From Branchiibius sp. NY16-3462-2 (GTDB lineage Bacteria > Actinomycetota > Actinomycetes > Actinomycetales > Dermatophilaceae), in contig NZ_LVCF01000042.1 of NCBI RefSeq assembly GCF_001594145.1, forward strand, positions 21,836 through 85,835: a DNA stretch of 64,000 nucleotides. The letters run 5' to 3'. Below are positions 6,182 to 59,213 of the stretch, piece by piece. The notes under the pieces are model-generated. The model was not told the DNA's origin. It ran no database searches and saw nothing but the letters and a program-made list of their open reading frames with translations. The number at the start of each line of letters is the position of its first letter. Positions within the stretch are counted from its first letter, which is position 1. The position numbers and the translations under genes were made by a program.

Positions 6182-6286
6182 GCGATCCTCCTGGCGTCGT
6201 ACGGCGGCAGCGGGCTCAGTCTTTCACCGCTAGCGCCGCCGACGCGGCAGGGTCCGCAAAGCGGGCAGTCTTGGCGGGTTTCACCG

Positions 6287-6351
6287 CGACGATTCTGGAG
6301 CGATCAACGTTCTGCAGGGAGTTTCCGCAGCAAACGGCTCCAGAATCGTCG
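6287..6351. repeat. Perfect 15-bp inverted repeat (CGACGATTCTGGAGC / GCTCCAGAATCGTCG) with a 35-nt spacer, in the spacer upstream of the NRPS gene
   Basis: Read directly: arms at 6287-6301 and 6337-6351. It lies between the stop of the orphan gene (6377) and the NRPS start (6181). Either a terminator for the upstream gene or a regulatory stem/operator for the NRPS. Confidence 0.55.
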
Positions 6352-6376
6352 ATCGCTCCAAAATCAGTGGGACAAG

Positions 6377-7567
6377 TCAGCCGTCAAGAGGAAGTCGCGG
6401 CGGTTGGTCGAGCCCAGCCCGCTCGCGCACGCGGGCTAGGAGCTCAGTGACATCGCGGTGCGCCTGGTCGACACCCTCCGCACCGTCGAGCATTGACGCG
6501 GTGGAGCGCTGAATGATCGCGGTGATGTGATGTGCGTAGCGCCGGACTGTGTAGGACTGCCGCAACGGCGGGCCGAAGCCGCCGTCCCACGTGCCGGTGA
6601 TCTCCAGCAACCGGACCGGCGAGTTGCGCCACCAGTCCGCCCAGGCCGGGTCAACCTGGACATGACAAAGCAACTGGTCCAGGGTCTGCTCGTACTCCCG
6701 CGGCATGCCATTGGTTAAGCCGTGACCGCAGAAGCGGATCTCGTGCGGCTGCTCCGGCGCTGAGCGACCGACGCCCATGACGGATAAACCCAGACCGGAG
6801 CTAACGACAGGCTTTGCTGGAGCGGTGGGTTCCGGTGGCCACACGACGTCGGGCTCGGTCGCTGTCAGCTGCGATAGAGACCAGCGCGACGTCGCAGCTT
6901 GTGTGCCGAACAGGCCTACCCACGGCACCGCCTCGACGCTCTCGGCACCTGCCCATCGCAACGTCCGAGCTGAGCGTTGGAAGCCTTCGATCGTGCTGAA
7001 GCTGGGGACTGCCTCCGAACGGAGGACCTGGGCTGTCTTGACGTCGGTCACCTCGAGGATGGCGATGCCGAAACCGTTGTCCTGCAGGCTGAACCGAAGG
7101 CGCGCCTTGTGCTTCCGGGTCCGCGATGTCTTCCAGGGACTATCCCAAGAGAACTCGAAGCGGTGAGCGATCACTGCGGCGTGCGCCTCGTTCAGCCGCT
7201 CGGGATCCCAACCTCGCGCCTGGCCGAGGCGCATCATGCCGCCGTGCACAGTTTCCAGGACTAGTGCTGCGCGATAGCCCGCGTCCAACGTGGTCGCTGC
7301 CGGTGGCAGCGTCACCCTGCCGGACTCGCTGTCGCTCGGATCGACCGACATGGCCACCTCGACATCGCCGGGTTCGCCCTGCCCGACGAAGAACCGCACA
7401 CTGCTCGACCGGTTCGACAACTCGGCCTTTCGCAGAGCGTCGCTATAGCGCTCGCACACCCGTCGCGAGGTTCGTACGAAAGCGTCGCAGTTCGGTTCAT
7501 CAGGATCCCAGGGCTCCGCCTCTGGTCCGGCCAGCGGCCAGAAGTGCACATCTCGCAGGAGCCCCAT
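6377..7567 (-). CDS. Hypothetical protein (no recognisable motifs)
   Basis: Long ORF with GC-rich third codon positions. Start chosen at MGLLRDVHFWPL (ATG 7567-7565), 14 nt downstream of the permease stop. The upstream extension to 7714 is Arg-rich and overlaps the permease gene. No TM segments or known motifs seen. Confidence 0.6.
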   Translation of the reverse strand: MGLLRDVHFWPLAGPEAEPWDPDEPNCDAFVRTSRRVCERYSDALRKAELSNRSSSVRFFVGQGEPGDVEVAMSVDPSDSESGRVTLPPAATTLDAGYRAALVLETVHGGMMRLGQARGWDPERLNEAHAAVIAHRFEFSWDSPWKTSRTRKHKARLRFSLQDNGFGIAILEVTDVKTAQVLRSEAVPSFSTIEGFQRSARTLRWAGAESVEAVPWVGLFGTQAATSRWSLSQLTATEPDVVWPPEPTAPAKPVVSSGLGLSVMGVGRSAPEQPHEIRFCGHGLTNGMPREYEQTLDQLLCHVQVDPAWADWWRNSPVRLLEITGTWDGGFGPPLRQSYTVRRYAHHITAIIQRSTASMLDGAEGVDQAHRDVTELLARVRERAGLDQPPRLPLDG

Positions 7568-7581
7568 GGACGCCAAGATAG

Positions 7582-8973
7582 TCAGCCGTCGATGCGGAGG
7601 GCTGCGACGACGGGAACGCTCGTTGCGCGGCGGGCTGGGGGCAGTGCGGACACCAGGACCAGCGCGACACCGACCGCGGCAACGGTGCCGAGGAATGCCC
7701 AGGGCGTGCCCCACACGAAGCCGTTGGTCTGGAAGCCGATGACCGACTGTGCTCCGATCGAGCCGAAGATCACCCCCAGGATCAGTCCGAAGAGGACCGC
7801 GGTCCCGGCGAGGGCCGCTGATTCGCGGGTGATCATCGAGCGGATCTGGGTGCCGGTGAAACCGACGGCTCGCAGCAGACCGATCTCCCGGCGCCTCTGG
7901 ATCACCGTGAGGGACATCGTCGAGATGAATCCGATCACCGAGATGACGCAGGACACCACCACGATGCCCGTCATCACGGCACCGATCGCACTGAGCAACT
8001 GATGGGCTAGCTCCCGGTCGGCGGGTGTGAGTTGGGTCCAGCCGTCGACGGCCTGCTGCAGAGCGCCCATCCCGGACGCGATGGTGGTGACGATTGCCAC
8101 ACCGATGACCAGACCCATCGTGGAGCGGGTGGTGCGCTGCGGGTCGAGGACCGCGTTACGACGGGCGATGCGGCTGGCGGGAGTTTCGCCCAGCGCTCGT
8201 CCGGCGGCGCTGACCAGCCCGGGCACGACGTACCGCGCACCGATCAGCAAGCCGGTCGCGAAGGTGGCGGCGCCGAGGAAGGCGAGCAGGAAGCCGTAGC
8301 CCGCGTAGTGCTCGCCGGTCCAGGCGGCGCCGAGCAGGAAGACAACGCCGGCGGCCATCGTGAGTACGGCGAAGGCCTTGCGCAGCCGGGACTCGCGGCG
8401 GGTCGCCGCCGAAGGGGCGGATACTCCGGTCATCGCTTCAGCCGGTGTCACGGTCAGGACGCGGCGGGACCCGAGCCAGCCACACACCAGCGCCACGATC
8501 GCGATGATGAGGACCGGGACGATCAGGAAGCTGCTGGTCAGCGGATAGTCGTGCGACGGGAGCGTGCCGCGTGCCACCAACACGACCCGCGCGACGGCGG
8601 TGATGGCGACCCCGAGGGCCGCTCCCCCGAGGGCAGCCAGCAGGCCGATCAGGCCGGTGGATCGCATCACCACCTTGCGCAGGTCGGCTGAGCGGGCGCC
8701 GAGCAATCGCAGCAGCGCCAACTGCCGCAACCGTCCGGCCAGGACCGTGTCGACCGCGTTGGTGATGACGACCGCTGCCACGTAGATCGCGACGAGGTTG
8801 AACACCAACGAGGCGATCTGCAGGGTGAAGCCGAGCCTGCCCGGGTCGTTGCCGAGGGTCGCCAATACCGCACTGGCAGAGACCAATACACCGGCGTACA
8901 GGCCGCAGAGGGCAGCGACCAATCCGATCGTGCCGAGGTCGCGACCGGAGCCAAGGACGAGTTCCCTATTCAC
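7582..8973 (-). CDS. ABC transporter permease with duplicated FtsX domains
   Basis: About 10 hydrophobic segments. Two FtsX-type loops: LLRLLGARSADLRKVVM and IGLLRAVGFTGTQIRSMI. GTG start at 8973-8971 overlaps the ATPase stop by 4 nt (GTGA). Confidence 0.85.
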   Translation of the reverse strand: MNRELVLGSGRDLGTIGLVAALCGLYAGVLVSASAVLATLGNDPGRLGFTLQIASLVFNLVAIYVAAVVITNAVDTVLAGRLRQLALLRLLGARSADLRKVVMRSTGLIGLLAALGGAALGVAITAVARVVLVARGTLPSHDYPLTSSFLIVPVLIIAIVALVCGWLGSRRVLTVTPAEAMTGVSAPSAATRRESRLRKAFAVLTMAAGVVFLLGAAWTGEHYAGYGFLLAFLGAATFATGLLIGARYVVPGLVSAAGRALGETPASRIARRNAVLDPQRTTRSTMGLVIGVAIVTTIASGMGALQQAVDGWTQLTPADRELAHQLLSAIGAVMTGIVVVSCVISVIGFISTMSLTVIQRRREIGLLRAVGFTGTQIRSMITRESAALAGTAVLFGLILGVIFGSIGAQSVIGFQTNGFVWGTPWAFLGTVAAVGVALVLVSALPPARRATSVPVVAALRIDG

Positions 8974-9725
8974 GCTGCACCAACCTCCAGGTTCACCATC
9001 AGCCGGGCGATCTCCGTTGCGGGCATCGCCGGGTAGTCGCCCGCGATCCGCCCGTCGGCGACGACAAGGATGCGATCGGCGTACGACGCGGCGACCGGAT
9101 CGTGGGTGACCATCAGGATCGTCTGGTGATGCTCCTGGGCGGCAGCACGCAACAGCGCCAATACTTCTCGGGAGGTGCGGGTGTCCAGGTTGCCGGTGGG
9201 TTCGTCGGCGATGACCAGGTGGGGGCGTACGGCGAGTGCCCGGGCGATCGCGACGCGCTGCTGCTGACCGCCGGACAACTCCGCGGGACGGTGGGTGATG
9301 CGCTCCTTGAGACCCAGCGTCTGCGTCAGGTAGTCGATGCGCTCGCGGTCCTGCTCGCTTGGCGTGCGCCCAGCCAGGTCGAAGGGCAGCAGGATGTTCT
9401 CGCGGACGGTCAGCGTCGGGACCAGGTTGAACGCCTGGAAGACGAAGCCGATGTGGTCGCGGCGCAGTTGGGTGCGCCGGTCGTCGGACAGTTCGTGGAA
9501 GGGCTGACCGGCCAGCCACACCTGGCCCTTGCTCGGATTGTCCAGTCCTGCAGCGATGTTCAGCAGCGTGGACTTGCCGGAGCCGGACGGACCCATGATG
9601 GCGGTGAACTGGCTGGGCGCGATGTCGAGGCTGATGTCGGTGAGGGCGGGGACGGCACTGGGTCCATCGCCGTACCAGCGATCGACGTTGCGCATCCACA
9701 GGACAGGGGGTAGTTGTTCGGTCAT
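8970..9725 (-). CDS. ABC transporter ATP-binding protein (MacB/LolD-like)
   Basis: Walker [11 protein letters not shown]-loop FVFQAFNL, signature [15 protein letters not shown], Walker [14 protein letters not shown]-loop MVTHD. Start at MTEQLPP (ATG 9725-9723). Confidence 0.9.
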
Positions 9726-46997: not shown

Positions 46998-49184
46998 ATG
47001 GCCGTTGATCAGGACATCCGCCTGGACATCCAGGGGATGACGTGCGCCTCCTGCGCGATGCGCATCGAGAAGAAACTGAACAAGATCGACGGTGTGCAGG
47101 CCAGCGTCAACTACGCGTTGGGTACGGCGAGCGTGCACGCCCCAGCGACTGTCCCGGTGGATCAACTGGTCCAGACCGTCGAAGCCGCCGGCTACAACGC
47201 CTCGCTTCCGCAACCCGCGGCCGAACCGGTCGACGAGACCGCCGGCCTGCGTCGCCGGCTGATCATCACCTGGATCATGGCGCTGCCGGTCATCGTCCTC
47301 TCGATGGTCCCGGCGCTGCAGTTCCCGGGCTGGCAGTGGGTGGCCCTGGCGCTGACCGTGCCGGTGGTGCTCTGGGGCGGCCTGGGATTCCACCAGGCCG
47401 CCTGGAAGAACCTGCGGCACCGCACCGCCACGATGGACACCCTGGTGTCGGTCGGCACGTTGGCCGCGCTCGCCTGGTCGATCTACGCGATGGTCTTCGG
47501 CCACGCCGGCATGATCGGGATGCACCACCACTTCTCGGTGGTCGTCGAGCCGCAGGAAGCAGCCGATGCGATCTATTTGGAAGCAGCCGCCGGGGTCACG
47601 GCCTTTCTCCTGCTCGGGCGCTACCTGGAGGCGCGATCCAAGCGCGCTGCCGGTGCCGCCGTGCAGGGCCTGCTGCAGCTGAAAGCCGACGACGTCCTCG
47701 TGGAGCGCGCTGGTGTGGCAACGAGTATTCCGTTGTCGGAGTTGGTGATAGGCGATACCTTCCGGGTGCGTCCCGGTGACCGCGTAGCCACTGACGGAGT
47801 CGTGATCGACGGCCACGCCAGCATCGACGCGTCCGCAGTGACCGGCGAGAGCGTCCCGATCGAGGTCGGGTCGGGCGACCACGTCGTGGGTGGCACCCTG
47901 GCGGCCGGCGGCAGTCTGCGCGTCCGCGCCACCGCAGTCGGGGCGGACACCGAGTTGTCCCGGATCGCTGCCCTGGTCGAGCAGGCGCAGACCGGTAAGG
48001 CCTCCGTGCAGCGATTGGCCGACAAAGTGGCCGGTGTCTTCGTGCCGATCATTCTGTTGCTGGCGCTGGCGACCCTGCTGGGCTGGTGGCTGATCGGCGG
48101 GGATCTGACCCGCGGCTTCACCGCCGCCGTCGCCGTGCTGGTGATCGCCTGCCCGTGTGCCCTGGGATTGGCGACGCCCGTGGCGCTCCTGGTGGGAACG
48201 GGTCGGGGCGCGCAACTGGGCATCCTGATCCGTGGCCCGCAGGCATTGGAGCAGGCCGATGCGATCCAGACCGTCGTGCTGGACAAGACCGGAACCCTGA
48301 CTGATGGCCGGATGAGTCTGGTGGACGTCTGGGCTGCCGACGGGGACGAGCAGCAGGTACGCCGCGTCGCCGCCACCCTGGAGCAGGGTTCGGCCCATCC
48401 GATCGCGACCGCCATCTGCCGTGACCGCACCGACCTGTTGCCGGTCCGCGACTTCCACAGTTACGACGGGGCTGGCGTCGGTGGTGTGGTCGAGGGACGG
48501 TCGGCTCTCCTCGGCCGGGTGAGCTGGCTGCGGGACCAGGGGATCGACGTACCTGCACTCGTCTCGGACCGGGTGGATGCGCAAGCCGGCCTCGGCCGCA
48601 CCGCCGTGGTGCTCGTCGTCGACGGTCAGGTGAGCGGGGTGCTCAGCGTGGCGGATCGGATCCGAGCCACGTCAGGCCAGGCAGTGCGCGGGTTCGAGGC
48701 CCTGGGGCTGCACCCGGTCATGATGACCGGCGATCACCAGGGGGTCGCCGACGCGGTCGCGCGGCAACTGGGGATCAACGAGGTGTACGCCGAGGTGCGA
48801 CCACAGGACAAGGCGGCGCACATCTCCACCCTGCAACAGCAGGGCCAGAAGGTGGCCATGGTCGGCGACGGCGTCAATGATGCTGCTGCCTTGGCTACCG
48901 CAGACCTGGGCATCGCCATGGGTTCGGGCGCGGACGTCGCCTCCGACGCAGCTGATCTGACGCTGCTGCGCACCGATCCGGTGGTCGCGGTGGATGCGGT
49001 GCGGTTGTCGCGGGCCACGTTGCGCGTCATCCGCCAGAACATCGGCTGGGCGTTCGCCTACAACCTTGCTGCGGTGCCGCTGGCGATGTCCGGTCGGTTG
49101 GGGCCGATGGTGGCGGGCTTTGCGATGGCGGCCTCGTCAGTCCTGGTGGTGCTCAACTCGCTGCGGCTACGTCGTTTTCGCTGA
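46998..49184 (+). CDS. copA: Copper-translocating P1B-type ATPase
   Basis: N-terminal HMA domain GMTCASCAMRIEKKL, TGES, transmembrane CPC motif (ACPCALGLATP), phosphorylation site DKTGTLT, HP dipeptide (SAHPIA), MVGDGVNDAAAL. Confidence 0.9.
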   Translation: MAVDQDIRLDIQGMTCASCAMRIEKKLNKIDGVQASVNYALGTASVHAPATVPVDQLVQTVEAAGYNASLPQPAAEPVDETAGLRRRLIITWIMALPVIVLSMVPALQFPGWQWVALALTVPVVLWGGLGFHQAAWKNLRHRTATMDTLVSVGTLAALAWSIYAMVFGHAGMIGMHHHFSVVVEPQEAADAIYLEAAAGVTAFLLLGRYLEARSKRAAGAAVQGLLQLKADDVLVERAGVATSIPLSELVIGDTFRVRPGDRVATDGVVIDGHASIDASAVTGESVPIEVGSGDHVVGGTLAAGGSLRVRATAVGADTELSRIAALVEQAQTGKASVQRLADKVAGVFVPIILLLALATLLGWWLIGGDLTRGFTAAVAVLVIACPCALGLATPVALLVGTGRGAQLGILIRGPQALEQADAIQTVVLDKTGTLTDGRMSLVDVWAADGDEQQVRRVAATLEQGSAHPIATAICRDRTDLLPVRDFHSYDGAGVGGVVEGRSALLGRVSWLRDQGIDVPALVSDRVDAQAGLGRTAVVLVVDGQVSGVLSVADRIRATSGQAVRGFEALGLHPVMMTGDHQGVADAVARQLGINEVYAEVRPQDKAAHISTLQQQGQKVAMVGDGVNDAAALATADLGIAMGSGADVASDAADLTLLRTDPVVAVDAVRLSRATLRVIRQNIGWAFAYNLAAVPLAMSGRLGPMVAGFAMAASSVLVVLNSLRLRRFR

Positions 49185-49322
49185 TGAGAGCCCTGCTGGG
49201 AGACTGTGGGCAGCCTGTGTAGGAATGGTCACATCGGTGGACAGCACCCCTTGTTTATGCGACTCTCGGCCCGGCGGACCCGAGATGGCCGCATGGACTG
49301 AGGCATCAAGGAAAGCAGCGCA

Positions 49323-52300
49323 ATGGCGGCGATCAAACGGTTCGGGCAGGCAACGGCAACGCGGGTGATCGCCGCTATGGCGCTGGTCGTGGCCCTCATC
49401 GCGACGATGAGCCTGGCGACCGCGCCGCAGGTTGCCGCAGCCGACCCGACGGCCACCATGCAGATGGCCAAGACCGCCGACGTTGGTGGTGACCTCACTC
49501 CCGGGACCGAGTTCCTCTACACGATCACCGTGACGTGCTCGTCGGTTGCCGTCGGCGGTTGTGAGAACTACGTCCTCACCGACCCGCTACCGCAGTACAT
49601 CGAACCCGTCGGCGATCCCACCGTCGACAACCAACCCTCCACGGTCACCATCAGTCCGGACAACGTCGTGACGGTGGATGTCAACCAGGCGCTCGGCGGC
49701 GGCAAGACCGGTCTGAAATCGGGCGACACACTCACCGTCACGATCCCGGTCAAACTCGCCGACGACGCGCCGGCAACGATCAACGGCAAGACCATCACCA
49801 ACACCGCCACCTCGACGGCGGACAACGCCACTCAGCAAACCGCTTCGGCTGACGTGACTCCCGTGGTGACCAGCGAACTGGGCGCGACCACCACCAAGAC
49901 CATCGAGCCGTCTGGTGCCGCCGCGAAGCCGGGGACCACCGCTGATGTGACCTTGACGGGTAGGAACACGTCCAATACGCCGGTTCATGAACTGGTGGTG
50001 CAGGACCCGGTCGACCCGGCTGCCTCCCCGAACCCGTTCACCTACCTCGGCGTGACGACGCCGCTCGGCGACGTCACCATGCCCAAGGGCGCCGACCAGG
50101 TCGTGGTGTGGGCGTACGTCAACGGGCAGTGGGTCGAGGGCGAGCCCGGGCCGCCGGCCACGCTGCCTGCCGGTGTTGACCCCAGTGCTGTGCAGGGACT
50201 GCGGTACGTCTTCACCGACACCACGGGGGACGGCATTGCCGCCGGCGCCACCGCCACCATTCCCTTCACCGTCCAGCAACGTGCCAATGTCACGGAACTG
50301 ACCGGCCCGGTGACCGTCAAGAACGACGCCCAGACCACAGTCACCACCACCGACGGGCAGAGCAAGACGTCCGATCCCGCAGACGACACCTATGTGATCA
50401 CTCCACCGGAGTTGGATGCTGCGGTCACCAAGAAGTTCGACCCGGCAACGGTGCACGCCGGTGACCCGAGCACCGTGACGATCGGTGCCACCAACTCCTC
50501 CAACGTCCCGGTCGACTCGCTGACCATCAAGGAACCGTCCGGAGCCACGAACCCGTTCGAGGGTGACAACCCGTTGACCTTCGCTGGATTCACCGGCGGC
50601 GTGGTCTGGCCCAGCGGCGCTACCGCGGCCGCCATCACCTACACCGGGCCGGGTTGTTCTGATCAGGCGCTGACCACGACCACTGCGAACACCCTGCCGG
50701 AGCCGCCCACCGGGTGCCAGCCCACTGGTTTCACCGTCACCTTCACCGGAACGATCGAGGCAGGGGCCGAGGCCACCCTTCCGTTCACGGTCGAGACTGA
50801 CGCCGACCAGAGCGTCGACTCCCTGACGCACAACAACCAGGTCAGTGCCCAGACCGGTCTGGACGGAGCCACCAGCGATCCGGCCACCGCCGACTCCTCC
50901 CTGGTGACCCTGGCCGATCGCATCGCGACCTCGACGACCAAACGGATCACGCCGAACGACATCCCGGCGGTGCCGGGTCAGGACGTCACGACCAGCCTCA
51001 CCGGAACGATCAAGGCCTTCCCGGATTCAACGGTCGATGCGCAACGCATGGTCGTCCAGGACCCCGAAGACCCCAGTGTCAGCCCTAACTTCTTCGACAC
51101 CTTCCGGCCCACGTCGGTGGACAGCACGGAGATCAACGAGTGCAGTCAGCTGACGGTCAATTACTGGAACGGCACCGCGTGGGTGCCCGTGCCGGGGATG
51201 ACCGACCTGCAGGGTCCGCAGCGTTTCTCGGGCAAAATTCCGGCGAGCGTGGACGCGCACGGCCTGCAGTTCGTCTACACCCCCGGTCCCGGGTGCACCG
51301 GTTTCCCGCCCGGCACCTCCTTCTCGCCGAACTTCACGTCCAACGTGCGCCCCGGCGTACCGAATGAGGACGCCACCGTCAGTAACTGCGCCGGCACCGA
51401 CGGCAGCGCCCCGACCGTCAGCCAGCCCGCCCACTCCCAGGGCTGCGCCGACGTCGACCTGAACCACGTCACCCCGGGCGAGGGCGACCTGATCGACAAG
51501 TCGTGGGACGACCCGGCCAACGTCGCGGAGCGTTCCGGTGACGAGCGCGGCGCGACACTGCGCTGGTCGACGGGCGGATTCTCGAACTTCGAGAAGGTCG
51601 TGATCAGCGATGTGCCCAACCCCCAGGAGCCGATCCAGAACTCCGTCTTCGATTCCTTCGACCTGGTGCGGATCGACCCGATCTCAGCGGCTGACGATCC
51701 GCTGCTGAAGTACGACCGGGTCGCCAGCGTCGAGCTCTACATCAACGGCCAGTGGGTCGAAGCCTCCGGTGACCCCTGCCCGGCCGCGTGCGATGGCACT
51801 TTCCCCGGGTACACGCTGACCGCCTCCGAGCGCGCTGATGCCACTGCCTTCCGGCTGACCTACGAAGAGTCCGACACCAACCGCACCGGCGCGGTGGGCA
51901 CGCCGGTCGTCGGTTCCGGTGTCGCCCGCTCCAGCGGCGACAACCGCACCATCCACCCGGTCTTCGCGCTTCGCGACGTCACCCGCCACACCCCGGCGGC
52001 TCCGGTGCTTTCCACCAGCGCCCTGAACACCGACCAGGCCGGCCTTGTCAGCAACACCGCCGGCGCCGACGCCTACTTCCCGGGCGACACCACCCCGTCG
52101 TACTCCGATCAGGCCAGTGACCGGATCACCATCGTGCCGGCCAACCTGCAGGTCGACCTGGCCAAGACCTGGGAAGGCGGTCCGCTGGGGGTCCCGGCAC
52201 CGGGAACGGCAGCCGAGAAGTACCCCACGAGTGAGGTGACCCTGGCGGCCACCAACAAGTCGCTGTCCCGGCTGGACACGCTGACCATCACCGAGCCGAC

Positions 52301-55300
52301 GGGCACGTCCAATCCGTTCGACACGTTCGATCTGATCGGCTTCACCACCATCACTGCGCCCGCCGAGATCGGCGCCACGGACGTGACGATCACCGTGCAC
52401 TACGCCGGTGGCGCGCCCGATCGCACCTTCACCCGACAGGAGGCGCTGGACGCCCCGGCCACCGACTTCGAGGGTGCGGTCGGCTTCGACACCGTCTACA
52501 CCGGCCGCATCAACTCCGCGACGGACCAGCAGCGTGGTGCCCACAACACCGCAACCGTGGGATTCGACACCCGGCTGCGGCCGACGCACCGCGCCGACGG
52601 CACGCCGGTCACCGCACCGGCCACCATTGCCAATGAGGCGACCACGACAGGTAAGGATCTGGTCGACTATCCGAGCGACACCAAGACCGCTACCGACAAG
52701 GACACCGCGAGCATCGATCTGGTCCCCGGCGCCCTGACGGTCCAGGCCGGCAAGTCGATCAAGCCGGCCAGTCAGGTCGAAGGTGACAACTCGCCGGTCA
52801 CCGTGACCCTCAGCGGTCAGCCGAAGGGTCCGGCCCGCACGGTGCAGATGATCGTCCAGGACGACGCACCGACCTTCTGGAACCAGTACGACTTCACCGG
52901 CTTCTCCGCCTTTTCCTTCACCAACCCGATCAACCAGGTGCAGGTGGATGCACTCACCGGTGGCACCTGGAGCGTCGTAGGCGGCGAACCGGTCCTCACC
53001 GGGGCCACCTGGAAGACCGGCACCCCGGGCACCGCTCTGGCCCTGCCAGCGGGAGTCACGGCGCCGCAGGTGCAGGGACTGCGCTTCACCTTCACCCGGG
53101 CCGACGGCAAGAACTGGGAAAACCCGTCAACGCCGAAGCAGAACGTCTCGTTCAAGGTGACCCGTCGCGCCACTCTCAACACCGGCGGCCCGGTCCTCAC
53201 CGATCAGAAGGGCAACGCCCCCGCCCCGGGTGAGACCCAGGCGGGGCGGGCCAGCGATGTCGTCGACGTCGATGCGACCAGTTCCGCGCTCGACGGTGAC
53301 GGCAACCCGATCGTGGCGGACGACACCGCCAACGCGCATATCGACTACGTACACCTGAACAACGCGGTGCAGATCACCAAGAACCCGAAGGGGAACACCT
53401 ACCAACCCGGCGTTCCGTTCACCTACGTCGTCACAGTCAAGAACACCGGTAAGGCGCCCATCGAGAACCCGGTCATCGTCGACGCCATGCCGACCGATGC
53501 CGACGGCGCCCAACTGGTCTTCAACCCCGACGTTTCGGCGAGTAACCGGTACACCTACACCCTTACTCCGCCGTCGGAGGCCGACACGGCGCTGCCGACG
53601 ACAGCAGACGACGTCACGGTGGCCCAGGAATCCGACGCCCAGGACTCGCCGACGTCGCTGACCTTCACCTTCCCGGACGGATCCATCCTGCAACCCGGCG
53701 AGACCTACTCCATCGCCTTCTCCGTCCTCACGCGTCCCGGGCTGAAAGCCAAAACAACCTTCACGAACAAGGTCGGCATCACCGCCGACCGTCCGTGGGA
53801 CAGCTGCTCCGGGACCTTGGACCCCAGCACGGGCGCCTGCACCACGACGGCCGCCAACACCATCGGTGAGGGTGCTGCGATCGGCGTCTCCAAGCGGGTC
53901 AAGGCCGAGGACTCCGACACCCTCGGGGTCATCACCGACCCCGCGCTGACCAAAGCGGTCGACTGCCACCCCGACGCTGCCGGGTTCTACGGCAAGCCCT
54001 GTATCCCCGTGACCAAGCCCGGTGGTGACATCACCTGGCGCACGACGTACGTCAACACCGGCAACGAGTCGCAGACCCGCATCGTCGCCATCGATCGGCT
54101 GCCCAAGCCGGGTGACACCGGCTCGACCAACAGCCTGGCCCGCGGGTCCCAGTGGCGCCCGATCCCGTCCGGTCGACCCACGCTGGTGAGCGGTAACTCC
54201 ATCGATCTGTCGGTGTACTACACGACCTCGGACAACGTGTGTCAGGACGACCTGGTGCAAGCCAACCCGGGGGCCTGCCCGACCGGGGCATGGACCCTGT
54301 GGGCGGAGGGCACGACGCTGCCGGAGAACGTCCTGCAGTCGATCACGGCGTTCCAGTTCGTGTACGCGCCGAACAAAGCGCTGATTCCGCCACTGGGGGG
54401 CTTCAGCGTCGACATCCCGCAGACGGCACCGGCTTTGTCGCCGACCGCCGGTGCGGACACCGTCGCCTTCAACACTACGGGCGCTCGCGCTGAGGCGGTG
54501 CGCGCCAACGGCACCGTGCACACGACCCTGACCACGGAACCGCCGCGGGTCGGCGTATCGCTGGCCACCGGTCCGTTGCAGGTCGAGAAGGTCGTCACGG
54601 GTCCGGCCGCGGAGAATGCACCGGACACGTTCTCGGCGACGTTGCACTGCACGTCGGTGGGTGTAGAGGTCGACCTGGGTGACAAGGCGAATCTCACGTT
54701 GACGCCGAACACCCCGGTGACCGTCAAGGACCTGCCGTACAACGCCGACTGCTGGGTCACCGAGTCCGGGGACGGCGGTCAGACCAGCTCGAGTTCGACC
54801 CATGTGACGGTCACCCGGGATGAGCAGAACGTCCCGTTGATCACGCTGACCAACGTCTACGAGAACGCGTCGCTGGTCGTCAGCAAGACGGTTGACACGA
54901 CGGCCACGGACCAGAACGGCGCGCCGCTGACGTACGGCCCGTTCCAGATCGCGGTCGAGTGCACCTTCCTGGACAAGCCGGTCTACGCCACGGGCTACTC
55001 GGCGGACAAGCCGATGCAGGTCACCCTGAAGGACGGCGAGTCGCACACCTTCACCGGTCTGTCGGCCCGCTCGATCTGCACCGTGACCGAGTCGGATTAC
55101 ACCGGGGCCAGTGTCAGCTACGAGACCACGACCGGCGAGGACTCGTCGGCGACAGGTACCGGCACCCTGGTGCCCGATGGATCGGACGGAAGCGCCCAGA
55201 ACACGACCAAGGTCACCAACACCTTCGACAGTGGGTCGCTGCTGCTCACCAAGAAGGTGGAGGGTGACGCCGCGTCGACGTACGGCGCCGGCCCGTTCAC

Positions 55301-56807
55301 CTTCCACCTGGTCTGCACGCTGGACGACCACGCTGAGGGGGCTGAGCAGCCGCGCACGGTGTACGAGGCCGACCTGACCCTTGGTGGAGACGAACCACTG
55401 CAGCGCTCGGTCGACCACATCGCCACCGGCGCACAGTGCACCGTCAGCGAGACGGATAACGCCGGCGCGACCAGCTCGTCGCTGGATCCGGCGGACGGCA
55501 CGGTCACGATCGGCTCCTCGACCGCCGAGATCGCCACGGTGACCGCGACCAACACCTTCGACGCGGGCACCTTGGCCGTCACCAAGAAGGTGTCGGGAGC
55601 AGCCGCGGATTACGCCCCAGCCTCGTTCCCGGCGGAGGTGACGTGCACGGCGGACGGCAAGACACTGCCCGGCTTCCCGCGGCAGATCACGATCACGCCG
55701 GGCGAGACGACCACTGTGGACGCCCTGGTCGGAGCCTCGTGTGTCGTGCGGGAAACAGGCCAGCATGGCGCCACCGGTGTCACCTACGACCCCGCCGACC
55801 CGGACAACCCCGACCAGAGCAAGCCGGTGGTGATCGGACCGGCTGAGCAGGACCCGGTCCAGGTGGGCATCACCAACGAGTACCGGGCCGGCGGTCTGCA
55901 GATCTTCAAGCAGGTCGACGGACCGGGCGCCCCGGAGGCATCCGTCGGACCGTTCGTCTTCTCGGTGGTGTGCACCTTCGACGGCAAGCAGGTCTATGAC
56001 CACGAGGTCACCCTCACCGGCGATGGCACCAGCACGGTGTTGAAGTCCGAGATCCTGTCGCCGTTGCCCGTCGGGGCGCAGTGCGTCGTGCGTGAGACCG
56101 GTAACGGAGGCGCGGACAGCACCCCTGCACCGGTCACCGTGACCATTCCCAATGTGGACGACTCGGGTACGGCCCAGGTTGTGGTCGCGGGCTTCACCAA
56201 CGAGTTCTCGGCCGGAACCATCGCCCTGGCCAAGGACCTGGCCGGTGATAACGCCGAGAGCGCCCGGGACAAGGTCTTCACGATCCAACTCACCTGCCAG
56301 CTGGAAACACCGGATGGTGAGCGGGTGACGCTCTTCTCCGACCCGGTGCAGATCAAGGGCGGAGAAGTGCTGACGCCGACGGACGCGGACGGCAACGAGT
56401 TGAAGCTGCCCCGCGGTACCCACTGCTTCGCAGAGGAAACCGACTCCGGGGGAGCGACCTCCGTCGAGGTCAGCAATGGTTCGTACGACGACGCGGTCGT
56501 GGTGGGTACCTCCGGGGAACTGCAGAAGCTGACGATCACCGTGACGAACACGTTCACGAAGCCGACGCCGCCTCCGACGACCCCGCCGCCGACGACGCCG
56601 CCTCCGACGACGTCACCGTCGCCGACCGGGACGCCGACCGGCACCACGTCACCGGCTCCGTCGGGCACGACCCCGCCGTCGGTCTCCACGGGTGGTCACA
56701 TCGGATCGGGTGACAACTCCTGGGCACTAGGAGTGGCCGGTATCGCGTTCCTGATCGCGGCAGGAGCCGCTGGGCTCCTGGTGTCGCGCCGACGCAAGGG
56801 GCAGTGA
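49323..56807 (+). CDS. Giant (2494 aa) sortase-anchored cell-surface protein / adhesin with multiple Ig-like repeat families
   Basis: N-terminal signal peptide (..LVVALIATMSLATAPQVAAADP). About six degenerate N-terminal modules share a (V/I)x(D/E)P...NPF...F core. There are DUF11-like segments (ITKNPKGNTYQPGVPFTYVVTVKNTGKAPIENPVIVDAMP), six tandem ~110-aa repeats and a Pro/Thr stalk. The C-terminus has a sorting-signal-like end (SVSTGG, hydrophobic helix, RRRKGQ). AAGGAAAG RBS. Confidence 0.9.
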   Translation: MAAIKRFGQATATRVIAAMALVVALIATMSLATAPQVAAADPTATMQMAKTADVGGDLTPGTEFLYTITVTCSSVAVGGCENYVLTDPLPQYIEPVGDPTVDNQPSTVTISPDNVVTVDVNQALGGGKTGLKSGDTLTVTIPVKLADDAPATINGKTITNTATSTADNATQQTASADVTPVVTSELGATTTKTIEPSGAAAKPGTTADVTLTGRNTSNTPVHELVVQDPVDPAASPNPFTYLGVTTPLGDVTMPKGADQVVVWAYVNGQWVEGEPGPPATLPAGVDPSAVQGLRYVFTDTTGDGIAAGATATIPFTVQQRANVTELTGPVTVKNDAQTTVTTTDGQSKTSDPADDTYVITPPELDAAVTKKFDPATVHAGDPSTVTIGATNSSNVPVDSLTIKEPSGATNPFEGDNPLTFAGFTGGVVWPSGATAAAITYTGPGCSDQALTTTTANTLPEPPTGCQPTGFTVTFTGTIEAGAEATLPFTVETDADQSVDSLTHNNQVSAQTGLDGATSDPATADSSLVTLADRIATSTTKRITPNDIPAVPGQDVTTSLTGTIKAFPDSTVDAQRMVVQDPEDPSVSPNFFDTFRPTSVDSTEINECSQLTVNYWNGTAWVPVPGMTDLQGPQRFSGKIPASVDAHGLQFVYTPGPGCTGFPPGTSFSPNFTSNVRPGVPNEDATVSNCAGTDGSAPTVSQPAHSQGCADVDLNHVTPGEGDLIDKSWDDPANVAERSGDERGATLRWSTGGFSNFEKVVISDVPNPQEPIQNSVFDSFDLVRIDPISAADDPLLKYDRVASVELYINGQWVEASGDPCPAACDGTFPGYTLTASERADATAFRLTYEESDTNRTGAVGTPVVGSGVARSSGDNRTIHPVFALRDVTRHTPAAPVLSTSALNTDQAGLVSNTAGADAYFPGDTTPSYSDQASDRITIVPANLQVDLAKTWEGGPLGVPAPGTAAEKYPTSEVTLAATNKSLSRLDTLTITEPTGTSNPFDTFDLIGFTTITAPAEIGATDVTITVHYAGGAPDRTFTRQEALDAPATDFEGAVGFDTVYTGRINSATDQQRGAHNTATVGFDTRLRPTHRADGTPVTAPATIANEATTTGKDLVDYPSDTKTATDKDTASIDLVPGALTVQAGKSIKPASQVEGDNSPVTVTLSGQPKGPARTVQMIVQDDAPTFWNQYDFTGFSAFSFTNPINQVQVDALTGGTWSVVGGEPVLTGATWKTGTPGTALALPAGVTAPQVQGLRFTFTRADGKNWENPSTPKQNVSFKVTRRATLNTGGPVLTDQKGNAPAPGETQAGRASDVVDVDATSSALDGDGNPIVADDTANAHIDYVHLNNAVQITKNPKGNTYQPGVPFTYVVTVKNTGKAPIENPVIVDAMPTDADGAQLVFNPDVSASNRYTYTLTPPSEADTALPTTADDVTVAQESDAQDSPTSLTFTFPDGSILQPGETYSIAFSVLTRPGLKAKTTFTNKVGITADRPWDSCSGTLDPSTGACTTTAANTIGEGAAIGVSKRVKAEDSDTLGVITDPALTKAVDCHPDAAGFYGKPCIPVTKPGGDITWRTTYVNTGNESQTRIVAIDRLPKPGDTGSTNSLARGSQWRPIPSGRPTLVSGNSIDLSVYYTTSDNVCQDDLVQANPGACPTGAWTLWAEGTTLPENVLQSITAFQFVYAPNKALIPPLGGFSVDIPQTAPALSPTAGADTVAFNTTGARAEAVRANGTVHTTLTTEPPRVGVSLATGPLQVEKVVTGPAAENAPDTFSATLHCTSVGVEVDLGDKANLTLTPNTPVTVKDLPYNADCWVTESGDGGQTSSSSTHVTVTRDEQNVPLITLTNVYENASLVVSKTVDTTATDQNGAPLTYGPFQIAVECTFLDKPVYATGYSADKPMQVTLKDGESHTFTGLSARSICTVTESDYTGASVSYETTTGEDSSATGTGTLVPDGSDGSAQNTTKVTNTFDSGSLLLTKKVEGDAASTYGAGPFTFHLVCTLDDHAEGAEQPRTVYEADLTLGGDEPLQRSVDHIATGAQCTVSETDNAGATSSSLDPADGTVTIGSSTAEIATVTATNTFDAGTLAVTKKVSGAAADYAPASFPAEVTCTADGKTLPGFPRQITITPGETTTVDALVGASCVVRETGQHGATGVTYDPADPDNPDQSKPVVIGPAEQDPVQVGITNEYRAGGLQIFKQVDGPGAPEASVGPFVFSVVCTFDGKQVYDHEVTLTGDGTSTVLKSEILSPLPVGAQCVVRETGNGGADSTPAPVTVTIPNVDDSGTAQVVVAGFTNEFSAGTIALAKDLAGDNAESARDKVFTIQLTCQLETPDGERVTLFSDPVQIKGGEVLTPTDADGNELKLPRGTHCFAEETDSGGATSVEVSNGSYDDAVVVGTSGELQKLTITVTNTFTKPTPPPTTPPPTTPPPTTSPSPTGTPTGTTSPAPSGTTPPSVSTGGHIGSGDNSWALGVAGIAFLIAAGAAGLLVSRRRKGQ
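54580..56557 (+). repeat. Six tandem ~110-aa domain repeats (DUF5979/CnaB-like) inside the adhesin gene
   Basis: Each unit starts with xxK(x)V (VEKVV, VSKTV, LTKKV, VTKKV, IFKQV, LAKDL). Each contains a Cys...Cys pair with C(x)V(x)E(T/S) (CWVTES, CTVTES, CTVSET, CVVRET, CVVRET, CFAEET). Each ends with TNx(F/Y) (TNVY, TNTF, TNTF, TNEY, TNEF, TNTF). Confidence 0.8.
56558..56678 (+). repeat. Pro/Thr-rich low-complexity stalk (PTPPPTTPPPTTPPPTTSPSPTGTPTGTTSP...) with short direct nucleotide repeats
   Basis: ccgacgccgcctccgacgac-type units repeated, read directly. Typical cell-wall-spanning linker. Confidence 0.8.
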
Positions 56808-57496
56808 GCCCGCGGCAGGGCGCCGCACGACGGCACCGCGGGGCAGTCACCCTCGCGCTGCTCGCTGTCGTGGTCGGCGCCCTCGCCGTCGCTGGCTTCA
56901 GCCTGCGGCAGTACGTCGCGGCCCCCGAGCCGACGCACAGCGGACTGACCGACATGAACGGTGCGATCGTCGTACCGGACGATCCGCCAGACGTGCAGGG
57001 GGCGCAGGTGCGCTCCACCGGGAAACGATTTGTCGCGCCGGACCAGGGCCTCGACGTACCCCTGGACTCGATGGATGTCACCGGGGGCGTGATCAACCCA
57101 CCGTCTTTCGCCACGGCGTTCCTGATCCGGCAGTACGGGCAGCCCGACGATCCGGCGTCGGGTCTGAGTGTGGTGACCATGCACGCGGTCTACGGCGGAC
57201 GCAGCCCGGGCAACTACCTGTTCTCCATGGCCCCCGATGATTCACACGCGGTGATCCGGGCTGGGGACCCGGTGCTGGTCGCAGGGGTGGGCTACACCGT
57301 CACGTCGACCATGGTCATCGACAAGGTCGCGGCCACCGACTCGCAGCGGATGTGGGGCCGGTGGAAGGAGCGGGGCAACGAACTGATGATCATCACGTGC
57401 CTGCAGCGCGCGGGCCAGGGCAGCGTGCACGCCGCGGACAACTTGGTGGTGTTCGCCCGCCGCGATCACGCCGCGGCAGGAGCGAGCGCGGGTTAG
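56804..57496 (+). CDS. Sortase (actinobacterial class E/F-like transpeptidase)
   Basis: N-terminal membrane anchor (VTLALLAVVVGALAVAGF), catalytic His (VVTMHAVYGG), TLxTC-type Cys motif (LMIITCLQ), conserved Arg (LVVFARRD). GTG start overlaps the adhesin stop (GTGA at 56804-56807). Confidence 0.85.
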   Translation: MSPRQGAARRHRGAVTLALLAVVVGALAVAGFSLRQYVAAPEPTHSGLTDMNGAIVVPDDPPDVQGAQVRSTGKRFVAPDQGLDVPLDSMDVTGGVINPPSFATAFLIRQYGQPDDPASGLSVVTMHAVYGGRSPGNYLFSMAPDDSHAVIRAGDPVLVAGVGYTVTSTMVIDKVAATDSQRMWGRWKERGNELMIITCLQRAGQGSVHAADNLVVFARRDHAAAGASAG

Positions 57497-57795
57497 AAGT
57501 GCCGACCGTGACGCGCCGCGCGACCCAGGCTCAACAGGGCGACGCCGGCGGCGAAACAGCAGGCGTACACCGCGAGGCCACCCACCAGGAGGGGGCGCAT
57601 ACGGTCAGCGACGTCGGGCGAGATTCCGGGGGTGATCGCCACGATGAGCAGCACCACTCCGGCCGGTACCAGCACCATCAGCAGGGAGAGACAGGCGGCG
57701 GTGATCGTTGCACCGATCTCCAGCGCGGCGTTCGAGGAACGCGCCGGATGGGGCATATGCGCGGTACGCGCCGATTCGCTCATCACCCGAGTCAT
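57493..57795 (-). CDS. Small membrane protein (hypothetical)
   Basis: 100-aa ORF with three hydrophobic helices. Convergent with the sortase gene, with overlapping stop codons. No homology recognised. Confidence 0.4.
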   Translation of the reverse strand: MTRVMSESARTAHMPHPARSSNAALEIGATITAACLSLLMVLVPAGVVLLIVAITPGISPDVADRMRPLLVGGLAVYACCFAAGVALLSLGRAARHGRHF

Positions 57796-57938
57796 ACCGG
57801 CAGTTTGACAGCCGCAAGGACGACCAACCCAGGGCTCACCTAGACCAAAAGGTGTAGATATGTACCCTCTTTACCAACTATTTGCCGCTAGTCCACCCGC
57901 GGTGGCGTAGAGGACCAGATACGTAGACTGTCGATCTT

Positions 57939-59213
57939 GTGAACATGCGTGGCGCCCTGGCTGACACCCGGCCTCTCGCCGTACCCGCCTACCGGCGGTT
58001 GTGGACGGCGAACATCGTCACGGTGATCGGTGCCCAGCTGACGGTGGTCGCCGTGCCCGCCCAGATCTACGCCATCACCGGGAGTTCCTTCTACGTCGGA
58101 CTCACTGGCCTGTTCGGCCTGGTGCCGCTGATCATCTTCGGGCTGTACGGCGGGGCGCTCGCGGATGTCATGGACCGACGGCAGTTGCTGATGATCACCA
58201 CGGTCGGCCTGATCGCGATGAGCGCACTGTTCTGGGTGCAGGCGGAGTTCGGCTGGTCGAACGTGTGGGTGATCCTGCTGATCTTCGCCGCGCAGCAGGC
58301 CTTTTTCGCCGTCAACCAGCCCACCCGAAGTGCCCTGCTCCCGCGGATCATCCCGCTCGACCTGCTCCCCGCCGCCAACTCCCTGAACATGACTGTGATG
58401 CAGGCCGGCGCGATCGCCGGGCCACTGGTCGGTGGGGCGCTGATCCCCGTGCTCGGCTACTCGGCGCTCTACCTGATCGACACGCTGTGCCTGTTCGCCA
58501 CGCTCTGGGCGGTCATCAAACTGCCGCCGCTGCCGCCGCTGGAGAAGGTCGGCCGGGCCGGACTGCGTTCGGTGCTGGAGGGATTCGCCTATCTACGCGG
58601 GCACACCGTGCTGTTGATGTCGTTCGTCGTCGACATCATCGCGATGGTCTTCGGGATGCCCCGGGCGCTCTTCCCGCAGATCGCGCACGAGAGTTTCGGC
58701 GGGCCGATCGACGGGGGACTGGCTTTCGCCCTGCTGTTCGCCGCCATTCCCCTGGGTGCTGTGGTCGGCGGGGTCTTCTCGGGGTGGGTGTCCCGGATCT
58801 CGCGTCAGGGGGTGGCCGTCGTGGCAGCGATCATCGTGTGGGGTGTGGCGATGACCGTGTTCGGACTGGCGGTGTGGCGGGCATCGGGCAGCATCGGTGT
58901 CGCGTTCTGGATCGCCTTCGTCGCGCTGGCGATCGGTGGCGCCGCCGACATGGCCTCCGCCGCGTTCCGCTCCACGATGCTGCAGCAGGCGGCGGCCGAT
59001 GACGTGCGCGGTCGCCTGCAGGGTGTGTTCATCGTGGTGGTCGCTGGTGGACCGCGCATCGCGGACGTGGTGCACGGCGGTGCGGCCGCCGTCGTCGGCA
59101 CAGCCGCGGCCGCAACTGGGGGTGGGGTGCTGGTGGTCGTGCTGGTTGTGGCGGTGACTCTGGCCGTGCCGGCATTCGTGCGCTATCGGGTGGCTCCCGC
59201 ACCCGCGCTCTGA
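57939..59213 (+). CDS. MFS transporter (12-TMS, EntS/MFS_3-like)
   Basis: AYRRLWTANIVTVIGAQLTVVAVPAQIY, GGALADVMDRRQLL (motif A-like), 12 hydrophobic helices. Start is GTG 57939 or ATG 57945. Confidence 0.85.
   Translation: MNMRGALADTRPLAVPAYRRLWTANIVTVIGAQLTVVAVPAQIYAITGSSFYVGLTGLFGLVPLIIFGLYGGALADVMDRRQLLMITTVGLIAMSALFWVQAEFGWSNVWVILLIFAAQQAFFAVNQPTRSALLPRIIPLDLLPAANSLNMTVMQAGAIAGPLVGGALIPVLGYSALYLIDTLCLFATLWAVIKLPPLPPLEKVGRAGLRSVLEGFAYLRGHTVLLMSFVVDIIAMVFGMPRALFPQIAHESFGGPIDGGLAFALLFAAIPLGAVVGGVFSGWVSRISRQGVAVVAAIIVWGVAMTVFGLAVWRASGSIGVAFWIAFVALAIGGAADMASAAFRSTMLQQAAADDVRGRLQGVFIVVVAGGPRIADVVHGGAAAVVGTAAAATGGGVLVVVLVVAVTLAVPAFVRYRVAPAPAL

Follow-up and report, generated by a model that had tools for sequence, protein, structure and literature searches.

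A giant isopeptide-domain surface protein of Branchiibius and its co-translated class F-like sortase: a candidate one-enzyme, one-substrate sorting system with a non-canonical motif

When a giant surface protein carries the membrane-anchoring tail of a wall-sorted substrate but no LPXTG signal, and the gene directly downstream encodes a sortase-like enzyme, do the two form a dedicated sorting system, and by which signal would the enzyme recognise its partner? The question is raised by a gene pair of Branchiibius sp. NY16-3462-2 (contig NZ_LVCF01000042.1), located at positions 49323-57496 of a 64-kb window, that is, of the whole stretch of DNA that was analysed. A sequence-only reading of this window had proposed a single-substrate, wall-anchored system rather than a pilus. 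An enzyme-substrate unit without pilin genes is indeed found and wall anchoring appears likely; however, both the kind of sortase and the absence of LPXTG depart from that proposal. We favour, with a probability of roughly 0.7, a one-enzyme/one-substrate sorting system that uses an undescribed sorting motif and in which the giant protein would be processed and anchored to the wall as a fibre.

The two genes are tightly coupled. According to the list of open reading frames and their translations, the giant gene (49323-56807, forward strand, stop codon included) starts with ATG and encodes a putative sortase substrate of 2494 amino acids (aa), and the enzyme gene (56804-57496, forward strand) starts with GTG and encodes 230 aa. 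A GTGA tetranucleotide (56804-56807, forward strand) contains both the stop codon TGA of the giant gene and the GTG start of the enzyme gene; both reading frames and their overlap are exactly as the sequence-only reading had described them. A Shine-Dalgarno-like AAGGGG run lies 2 nucleotides (nt) upstream of the overlap, and use of the next in-frame start of the enzyme gene, at 56870, would leave the protein with half of its membrane helix and no basic N-terminus. Branchiibius hedensis, the closest genome, possesses the same gene pair with the same 4-nt overlap and the same flanking genes, and the pairing is also kept in Aeromicrobium and Nocardioides.

The product of the downstream gene has a sortase fold. 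In an AlphaFold2 model built from 30 sequences (predicted local distance difference test score, pLDDT, 87.5), an N-terminal membrane helix (approx. residues 3-38) precedes a beta-barrel catalytic domain. When this model was compared with the PDB by Foldseek, the top 50 matches listed were all sortases of classes A and C (probability 1.00, E 3e-7 to 2e-5), and the two classes matched equally well, with target-normalised TM scores of 0.46-0.69. In an alignment of 170 family members, the key residues of the enzyme are His127 (57182-57184, forward strand, as are the other codons given here; conserved in 169/170), Cys199 within an ITC motif (57398-57400; 167/170), and Asn213 (57440-57442; 166/170), and Thr198 is present in all 170 sequences. 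The enzyme lacks the catalytic Arg after the Cys strand and has Asn there; Arg occupies position 213 in 2/170 members, and a separate, near-invariant Arg, R109 (57128-57130), is found in 131/170. As far as the work of Malik & Kim 2019 is relayed in PMC6998099 and PMC8703055, replacement of the catalytic Arg by Asn is typical of actinobacterial class F sortases. Because of this shared His-Cys-Asn triad, and because NCBI labels some family members (P0071, P0078, P0083) "class F sortase", the enzyme is called here a divergent class F-like sortase, an assignment that follows the triad and the labels rather than a tree and concerns a protein that scores below the NCBIfam cutoff.

The family to which the enzyme belongs is best recognised as a group. 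A family profile reached the class C sortase 8T28 in the PDB at E 0.033, with "LvliTC" aligned with the catalytic TC, and among 21 relatives, 11 match Pfam Sortase (best 2.6e-11) and 11 match the NCBIfam model class_F_sortase (NF033748; best 3.2e-7), both at E<0.01. A word-indexed search returned seven relatives only; when 1.84 billion cluster representatives were searched exhaustively with a profile, 247 members were recovered at E<=1e-30 and 1066 at E<=1e-3, and the family is therefore small and discrete. Its signature residues are L-D-V-P-L, I-N-P-P, P-G-N, and T-C-L-Q. Since the standard models fail on the Branchiibius enzyme itself, its identity as a sortase is taken from structure prediction and family analysis. 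The dedicated sortase of the sequence-only reading thus stands as far as fold and conserved triad are concerned, but it is no ordinary sortase, as it falls below the cutoffs of standard hidden Markov models (HMMs).

The C-terminus of the giant protein reads …TTPPSVSTGGHIGSGDNSW-ALGVAGIAFLIAAGAAGLLV-SRRRKGQ, with ALGVAGIAFLIAAGAAGLLV at the position of the transmembrane helix. Its layout is tripartite: the motif PSVSTGG (residues 2452-2458; 56676-56696, forward strand) is followed by 9 aa, a 20-aa transmembrane helix (residues 2468-2487), and the basic tail SRRRKGQ (helix and tail, 56724-56804, forward strand). The translated tail contains neither an LPXTG nor an LAXTG pentapeptide and does not match PF00746. 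The model TIGR01167 (LPXTG_anchor) scores 17.8 bits on it against a cutoff of 15.9, but this match covers the transmembrane and basic part (profile positions 7-33) and not the motif. The membrane-anchoring and sorting tail that had been read from the sequence is therefore present in its helix and basic end, but its signal is the non-canonical PSVSTGG rather than LPXTG. This motif is kept in B. hedensis and in Branchiibius cervicis despite a differing Pro/Thr stalk around it, and the scissile bond is predicted to be T2456-G2457.

Homologs of the giant protein show that such tails come in two kinds. The majority end in LPxTG or LAxTG (LPNTGG, LPQTGT, LPPTGG, LASTGG, LAKTGS, and similar), and a subset carries GPESHTGG, GPESHTGA, GPEAHTGG, or GPTSNTGG; both groups are about equally distant from the Branchiibius protein (43-48% identity). 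Within this giant family, a variant tail is accompanied by the enzyme gene directly downstream in 8/8 cases, whereas an LPxTG/LAxTG tail is accompanied by it in 0/4, the absence having been checked by an HMM search of all six frames of the four loci (Fisher p = 0.002, a value that ignores phylogeny and shared ancestry).

The association extends well beyond the giant family. When one genome per species was searched for relatives of the enzyme, 32 loci were obtained. In about 27 of them, from approx. 10 genera, a gene for a tail-bearing secreted protein adjoins the enzyme gene, usually directly upstream; in a count of about 34 evaluable loci, the number is likewise about 27. In the adjacent proteins, S/A/V stands at -2 and P/L/A at -4 before T-G, and a transmembrane helix and an Arg cluster come after it. 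In particular, the tail motifs are GPTSETGG and GPESHTGA in Nocardioides, GPDAQTGA in a member of Propionibacteriaceae (L013), GPDSETGA in Tessaracoccus, GASAHTGG in Pseudoclavibacter, GLASQTGG in Xylanimicrobium (where a second enzyme copy is followed downstream by a 2329-aa VWA/FctA/DUF7927 protein with AKAVTGG), GPVAATGG on a divergent neighbour in a metagenome-assembled genome (MAG) of Actinomycetes, and GLRS[ND]TGV in 16 loci of Geodermatophilaceae, often on two or three tandem paralogs. The candidate substrates are mutually unrelated and comprise DUF5979 giants, the VWA + FctA + DUF7927 giant, proteins of 322 and 990 aa, and a further family of approx. 400-aa Geodermatophilaceae proteins that lack a Pfam match. 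Signal peptides are found on the candidate substrates of L009, L011, L012, L018, L020, L028, L032, and L037. Moreover, of 25 enzyme-substrate pairs examined in various lineages, 21 show an overlap of 4-19 nt between the substrate stop and the enzyme start.

From 19 representative tails that adjoin the same enzyme family, the consensus G-[PLA]-x-[SAV]-x-T-G-[GVA] was derived, which PSVSTGG fits. Thr at position 0, Gly at +1, G/V/A at +2, S/A/V at -2, and P/L/A at -4 each occur in 19/19 tails and Gly at -5 in 15/19, and positions -1 and -3 are free; the conserved P/L thus lies one position further from T-G than in L-P-x-T-G. The NCBIfam model NF058571 ("GVDTG sorting domain") is matched by 5/6 variant tails (that of the giant protein and those of L006, L013, L018, and L037) at 9-15 bits against a cutoff of 29 and shows no match for a canonical LPPTGG tail or for the variant tail of L012. 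On the seven tails examined, all NCBIfam sorting-signal models stayed below threshold, save for TIGR01167 on the transmembrane and basic part of the giant protein. A literature search found no publication on the GVDTG sorting domain, and the NF058571 model may describe a sister system. The overall pattern is that of a dedicated C-terminal sorting system as set out by Haft (bioRxiv 10.1101/2023.06.07.544157): a tripartite signal at the extreme C-terminus, signal peptides on the targets, recurrent adjacency to the enzyme, and target homologs elsewhere that bear another signal (LPxTG/LAxTG).

On this basis, the following course of events is proposed. The giant protein would be exported by Sec, and its C-terminal helix and basic tail would retain it briefly in the membrane, where the co-translated, membrane-anchored 230-aa enzyme (His127-Cys199-Asn213) would process it. 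The enzyme would recognise PSVSTGG, in its general form G-[P/L/A]-x-[S/A/V]-x-T-G-[G/V/A], and would cleave between Thr and Gly through a thioacyl intermediate at Cys199; the carboxyl group of the Thr would then be passed to an amine of the cell wall (lipid II/peptidoglycan). The mature product would be a wall-bound fibre of several tens of nm that consists of nine CnaA/CLIPPER-like and six CnaB/DUF5979 immunoglobulin (Ig)-like domains, and the Pro/Thr stalk would span the wall.

Several observations weigh against this proposal. Standard sortase HMMs barely detect the enzyme: Pfam Sortase (PF04203) gives E 0.087 and 13 bits against a cutoff of 26.6, NF033748 gives 19.6 bits against a cutoff of 166, and a phmmer search of the enzyme against PDB sequences returned nothing relevant. 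The Branchiibius motif stands at the edge of the consensus, with Pro instead of Gly at -5 and Val at -2. The eight positive loci of the giant family may descend from one acquisition, and the contrast between 8/8 and 0/4 is therefore not to be counted as eight independent events. An adjacent tail-bearing gene is lacking at L001/L010 (a Xylanimonas MAG, where the enzyme gene follows thyA-folA), at three termite-gut Propionibacteriaceae loci (L002, L016, L019), and at L026 (Blastococcus TF02A-26), and the neighbour of the enzyme in Nocardioides sp. AE5 (L017) has Leu where Thr is expected (LNANLGG). No biochemically characterised class F sortase of the Asn type was found in the literature, and LPXTG is the signal used by the sole class F enzyme that has been characterised, that of P. 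acnes. Finally, the acceptor of the reaction cannot be deduced from sequence.

This last point is shared by an alternative that we consider unlikely, namely that the enzyme is an endopeptidase with a sortase fold, a "sheddase", or that it transfers the protein to a lipid, a glycopolymer, or another protein instead of peptidoglycan; the cut would still fall at T-G. Such an activity would suit an enzyme whose third catalytic residue is Asn, compared with Arg in all characterised sortases, and a class for which a quadruple deletion in Actinoplanes missouriensis had no phenotype and whose roles are still described as unknown (PMC13251363). It is at odds with the architecture of the giant protein, which is that of a wall-sorted protein throughout (signal peptide, wall-spanning Pro/Thr stalk, motif, transmembrane helix, Arg cluster), and with the orthologs in other genera that bear bona fide LPxTG/LAxTG; because of these signals, a shared final destination in the wall is suggested. 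The destination would be the same, but the catalyst another, if a housekeeping sortase of class E or A type anchored the giant protein via a degenerate x-S-T-G-G and the 230-aa protein were linked to it by gene order only. The TIGR01167 score on the tail, just over the cutoff, and the many giant-protein homologs that use LPxTG/LAxTG in the absence of an adjacent enzyme could be read in this way. The TIGR01167 match excludes the motif, however; the loss of the canonical motif coincides exactly with the presence of the adjacent enzyme in the giant family, and the pairing of motif and enzyme recurs with unrelated substrates in other orders, which makes the involvement of a housekeeping sortase improbable.

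A minimal pilus-like system, in which the enzyme would link copies of the giant protein head-to-tail, as pilins are polymerised by class C sortases, is more improbable still. Many class C (pilus) sortases are among the best Foldseek matches, and NCBI gives one giant-protein homolog the name "isopeptide-forming domain-containing fimbrial protein", but class A sortases match the enzyme fold equally well, and a 2494-aa subunit of 15 domains already has the length of a fibre. Neither a further pilin gene nor a second sortase gene is found among the genes of the locus. The absence of pilin-type partners had been noted in the sequence-only reading and is upheld here, since the neighbours are ordinary genes (a P-type ATPase gene upstream, a gene for a transporter of the major facilitator superfamily, MFS, downstream), and a pilus locus was rejected as a candidate for this reason. 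The proposal of a dedicated enzyme that sorts a single giant substrate through a variant motif thus remains the favoured one.

The loci of the enzyme family differ in further details. In Geodermatophilus, Blastococcus, and Modestobacter (L020-L023, L027-L038), one to three tandem paralogs of approx. 400-480 aa end in GLRS[N/D]TGV, a transmembrane helix, and RRRP; the paralog directly upstream of the enzyme gene has a short extra (A/V)EGGTC(A/E) extension, and the conserved GTG start of the enzyme gene overlaps its stop by 10-13 nt. These proteins are an unannotated substrate family. In Xylanimicrobium pachnodae (L009 8785-17082), the second enzyme copy follows thyA-folA and is itself followed by the gene for the 2329-aa protein, so that the substrate is encoded downstream rather than upstream; this protein contains VWA, four FctA, four DUF7927, and a DUF7601 domain and ends in AKAVTGG, a transmembrane helix, and RRRR. 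The Xylanimonas MAG (L001/L010) has the enzyme gene after thyA-folA but no such 2329-aa neighbour. The termite-gut Propionibacteriaceae/Actinomycetes MAGs L002 (2026-10765) and L019 each encode two tandem enzyme paralogs, one of which has a long Pro/Ala-rich N-terminal extension; the enzyme genes of L002 lie directly downstream of four genes for DivIVA-like coiled-coil proteins, and a DivIVA-like gene also lies upstream of the enzyme gene in L016. As no tail-bearing substrate is adjacent, this branch (L002, L016, L019) may act on something else. In L017, the gene for the enzyme's neighbour is divergently transcribed (6052-8835, reverse strand) and encodes 927 aa that end in …GALNANLGGH…, a transmembrane helix, and RRR. 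In L013, from a Propionibacteriaceae isolate (2937-4607), and in L015 of Tessaracoccus coleopterorum (7883-8876), the gene for the substrate precedes that for the enzyme and appears to be broken into several frames. DUF5979-like sequence runs on further upstream in a different frame, and the arrangement points to giant genes that have been frameshifted or are in decay.

As for the giant protein, it belongs to the fibres built of isopeptide domains and is an ordinary representative of that class; most of its parts had been recognised correctly from the sequence alone. Its Sec-type signal peptide (residues 1-40; 49323-49442, forward strand, as are all segments of the gene given below), read from the translation, has a K/R-rich n-region, a hydrophobic core, and an AAA-D cleavage site within APQVAAA-DP. 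It is followed by the short DUF11/CLIPPER-like domain M0 of CnaA type (residues 44-186; 49452-49880), with the putative triad K50/D87/N160, and by six enlarged CnaA/CLIPPER-like Ig domains, M1-M6 (residues 187-1342; 49881-53348), whose boundaries are 49881-50411, 50412-50927, 50928-51491, 51492-52166, 52167-52730, and 52731-53348. The next two modules, M7 (residues 1343-1490) and M8 (residues 1491-1725; both within 53349-54497), are assigned to the DUF11/DUF7507 CLIPPER type by sub-threshold Pfam matches (DUF11, DUF7507, DUF7619, DUF7927) and by the putative triads K1353/D1387/N1482 and K1524/D1591/N1717, respectively; M0, M7, and M8 are the three shorter modules that correspond to the predicted DUF11-like domains. 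The six predicted tandem CnaB/DUF5979-like domains (54498-56558) are equally evident: Pfam matches DUF5979 in six stretches at E 1.8e-60, with overlapping DUF7601 matches at E 1.9e-12, self-similarity agrees, and each domain has a Lys…Glu…Asn triad of CnaB type (e.g., K1756/E1814/N1844). The Pro/Thr-rich stalk (residues 2413-2451; 56559-56675) leads to the sorting motif.

The nine consecutive modules M0-M8 share a common plan: each opens with x-x-K-x and closes with x-N-x-A, and a (V/I)x(D/E)(P) strand lies approx. 35-45 residues after the opening Lys motif. In an alignment of the giant protein with 28 full-length homologs, the Lys (29/29) and an acidic residue, D or E (29/29), are invariant in all nine modules; the Asn of the triad is invariant in six of them (29/29 in M0), and N or D occurs in 29/29 in M3, M5, and M6. 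Judging from the alignment, these Lys/acid/Asn(Asp) triads are the signature of intramolecular isopeptide domains, and each domain probably forms an intramolecular Lys-Asn(Asp) isopeptide bond. In the 2025 survey of isopeptide domains (PMC12617251), DUF5979 and DUF7601 are classed as CnaB-like, and DUF11 (PF01345, renamed CLIPPER), DUF7507 (PF24346, CLIPPER_2), DUF7619, DUF7927, and DUF7933 as CnaA-like with Lys/Asp/Asn triads. Cysteine pairs also occur within the modules (49452-51491): TCSSVAVGGCEN in M0, nearly invariant among homologs, GPGCSDQ…TGCQP in M2, and NECSQ, GPGCTGF, and SNCAG…SQGCAD in M3. The same survey reports that isopeptide domains of Actinomycetota often hold disulfides as well, and the paired cysteines of M0, M2, and M3 fit this description. 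Full-length homologs (approx. 2000-2270 aa; 29-48% identity across the N-terminal 1300 residues) occur in many Actinomycetota, including Nocardioides, Aeromicrobium, Propionicimonas, Auraticoccus, Leifsonia, Curtobacterium, Microbacterium, Streptomyces, and others. A phmmer search of the giant protein against PDB sequences gave no match.

Are the N-terminal modules new? About six degenerate repeats had been described in the sequence-only reading as a family that could not be named and might be an undescribed adhesive repeat. Whole-protein self-BLAST gave the identity match alone, and a fragment-wise comparison was therefore needed; with 120-aa pieces, modules match one another at E 1e-4 to 2e-9, the matches recurring approx. 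every 175-225 aa, and M1-M6 are thus real repeats. The four peptides quoted as examples fall in M1, M2, M3, and M5, and the "(V/I)x(D/E)P…NPF" signature corresponds, in M1-M6, to the strand with the putative catalytic acid (D/E) and the next loop. Pfam yields nothing above threshold N-terminal of residue ~1340, M0 included, where it is blank or below threshold; the best scores in M1-M6 are 19 bits for DUF11, 18.7 bits for DUF7933, and 16 bits for CARDB, and among 24 M1-M6 modules from four homologs, one has a Pfam match at E<0.01.

Remote comparison places the modules nevertheless. An AlphaFold2 model of M1-M3 (residues 187-723; 37-sequence alignment) is all-beta with a mean pLDDT of 96.1, and its Foldseek matches in the PDB are the Ig-like domains of PrgB (8BEG) and the isopeptide-bonded C-domains of the Antigen I/II adhesins SpaP, SspB, AspA, and BspA (3QE5, 2WZA, 3OPU, 4OFQ, 5DZA), at E 1e-9 to 5e-17; integrin alpha-chain ectodomains are also among them. 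The global TM scores of these matches are low (0.2-0.36) because three domains were searched together. When the profile of the 24 M1-M6 modules was aligned by hhalign with a profile of M7 orthologs, the match reached 93.6% (E 2e-7, 111 columns), and the M7 orthologs in turn match DUF7507 in 10/11 cases (best 1.1e-7) and DUF11 in 7/11 (best 8.1e-7). With 172-225 aa, M1-M6 exceed the approx. 105-115 aa of the DUF7507 and DUF11 profiles, owing to insertions after the strand of the catalytic acid. On the evidence of the predicted fold, the Foldseek matches, the alignment with M7, and the DUF7507 and DUF11 matches of the latter, M1-M6 are read as enlarged, divergent, remote homologs of the CLIPPER type with an Antigen I/II-like fold, outside the Pfam families. 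The idea of a new adhesive fold was rejected on the AlphaFold2 model, the Ig-like Foldseek matches, and the hhalign comparison. Of the earlier claim, it holds true that no Pfam-A family covers M1-M6, but they have remote CLIPPER homologs and a known fold; the domain search and AlphaFold modelling suggested at the time as checks thus left the modules unmatched at the level of Pfam families and gave them the Ig-like fold of the Antigen I/II and PrgB type. They mark a gap in Pfam coverage, not a new fold. Pfam scans revealed no separate, non-stalk adhesive head domain in the giant protein; by analogy with the C-domains of Antigen I/II, the enlarged N-terminal modules could bind ligands, and a role of the protein in adhesion is conjectural.

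The surroundings of the gene pair are unremarkable. The G+C content is 63-70% across the whole window. Upstream of the giant gene lie genes for a PAP2 protein, an acyl-CoA thioesterase, and the P-type ATPase mentioned above, which is of the heavy-metal type; downstream of the sortase gene follow genes for the MFS transporter, a GNAT protein, a trypsin-like protease, and a PadR regulator. A scan of 48900-58100 for promoters and terminators gave no promoter and three terminator-like sites, which are on the wrong strand and fewer than expected from shuffled sequence. A 100-aa open reading frame (57493-57795, reverse strand) lies between the sortase and MFS genes, and a called 91-aa gene that lacks a Pfam match occupies the matching place in B. 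hedensis (L003 10714-10989, reverse strand). In B. cervicis NBRC 106593 (L007 8899-9680), the sortase-like gene, whose open reading frames were located by means of a local HMM, is distributed over two frames (8899-9276 and 8997-9680), and the giant protein is annotated only from within module M2 (P0008, 2109 aa, start MSRVDSLTITEPTG); either the system is decaying in that species or the assembly contains errors.

How the system relates to known ones can be stated for each of its components. The enzyme resembles the class F sortases of Actinomycetota (NF033748, IPR042001) in its membrane anchor, its beta-barrel, its His…TC…Asn residues, and its actinobacterial distribution; it differs from them in scoring far below NF033748 and under the Pfam threshold, in its own signature residues, and in the small size of its family. 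The literature found on class F assigns no cognate sorting signal to these enzymes. In Actinoplanes missouriensis, the proteins encoded next to two class F genes (AMIS_11010/srtF1 and AMIS_36440/srtF4) have a signal peptide, a transmembrane helix, and a basic tail; it was said that these genes "may encode substrates" of SrtF, but since "no pentapeptide motif" was found, they were set aside (mBio 2026, PMC13251363). Compared with these neighbours by description only, the present system adds a defined motif, a cross-species comparison, and the co-occurrence of enzyme and motif, which are absent from that study, as is an experiment on these candidates. A specialised sortase with a variant signal and co-encoded substrates with tripartite tails is also characteristic of SrtB/IsdC (NPQTN), class D (LPNTA), class E (LAXTG), and NF058571 (GVDTG); in contrast to these non-LPXTG pairs, the motif described here has P/L/A one position further from T-G, S/A/V at -2, and a free -3 position. 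The giant protein resembles fibrillar adhesins and isopeptide stalk proteins (CLIPPER/DUF11, DUF7507, DUF5979, Antigen I/II; PMC12617251) in its tandem CnaA/CnaB-like Ig domains, its triads, its wall anchor, and the disulfides of actinobacterial members, but it has no recognisable adhesive head, and its modules M1-M6 are enlarged and lie outside Pfam.

A broader reading, which we put forward as tentative and rather doubtful, is that class F sortases of the Asn type recognise the variant motif throughout, each as a private, co-translated enzyme for a single neighbouring substrate. It might, with the same reservation, extend to the "motif-less" srtF1 and srtF4 neighbours in Actinoplanes and to the class F genes of Streptomyces, and the change from Arg to Asn could conceivably be adaptive, moving the register of the signal by one residue. 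If this were true, class F enzymes of the Asn type would not be redundant housekeeping sortases. Among the sortase classes, class F is the one whose physiological roles and substrates are still stated to be unknown in recent literature (mBio 2026, PMC13251363; BMC Genomics 2020, PMC6998099). The Branchiibius locus and its approx. 27 relatives provide a candidate motif and a defined enzyme subfamily, by which the function of class F becomes directly testable, and the orthologs, which have either LPxTG and no enzyme or the variant motif together with the enzyme, constitute a natural experiment. Sortase-mediated protein ligation would also profit from an enzyme whose recognition sequence is new and orthogonal.

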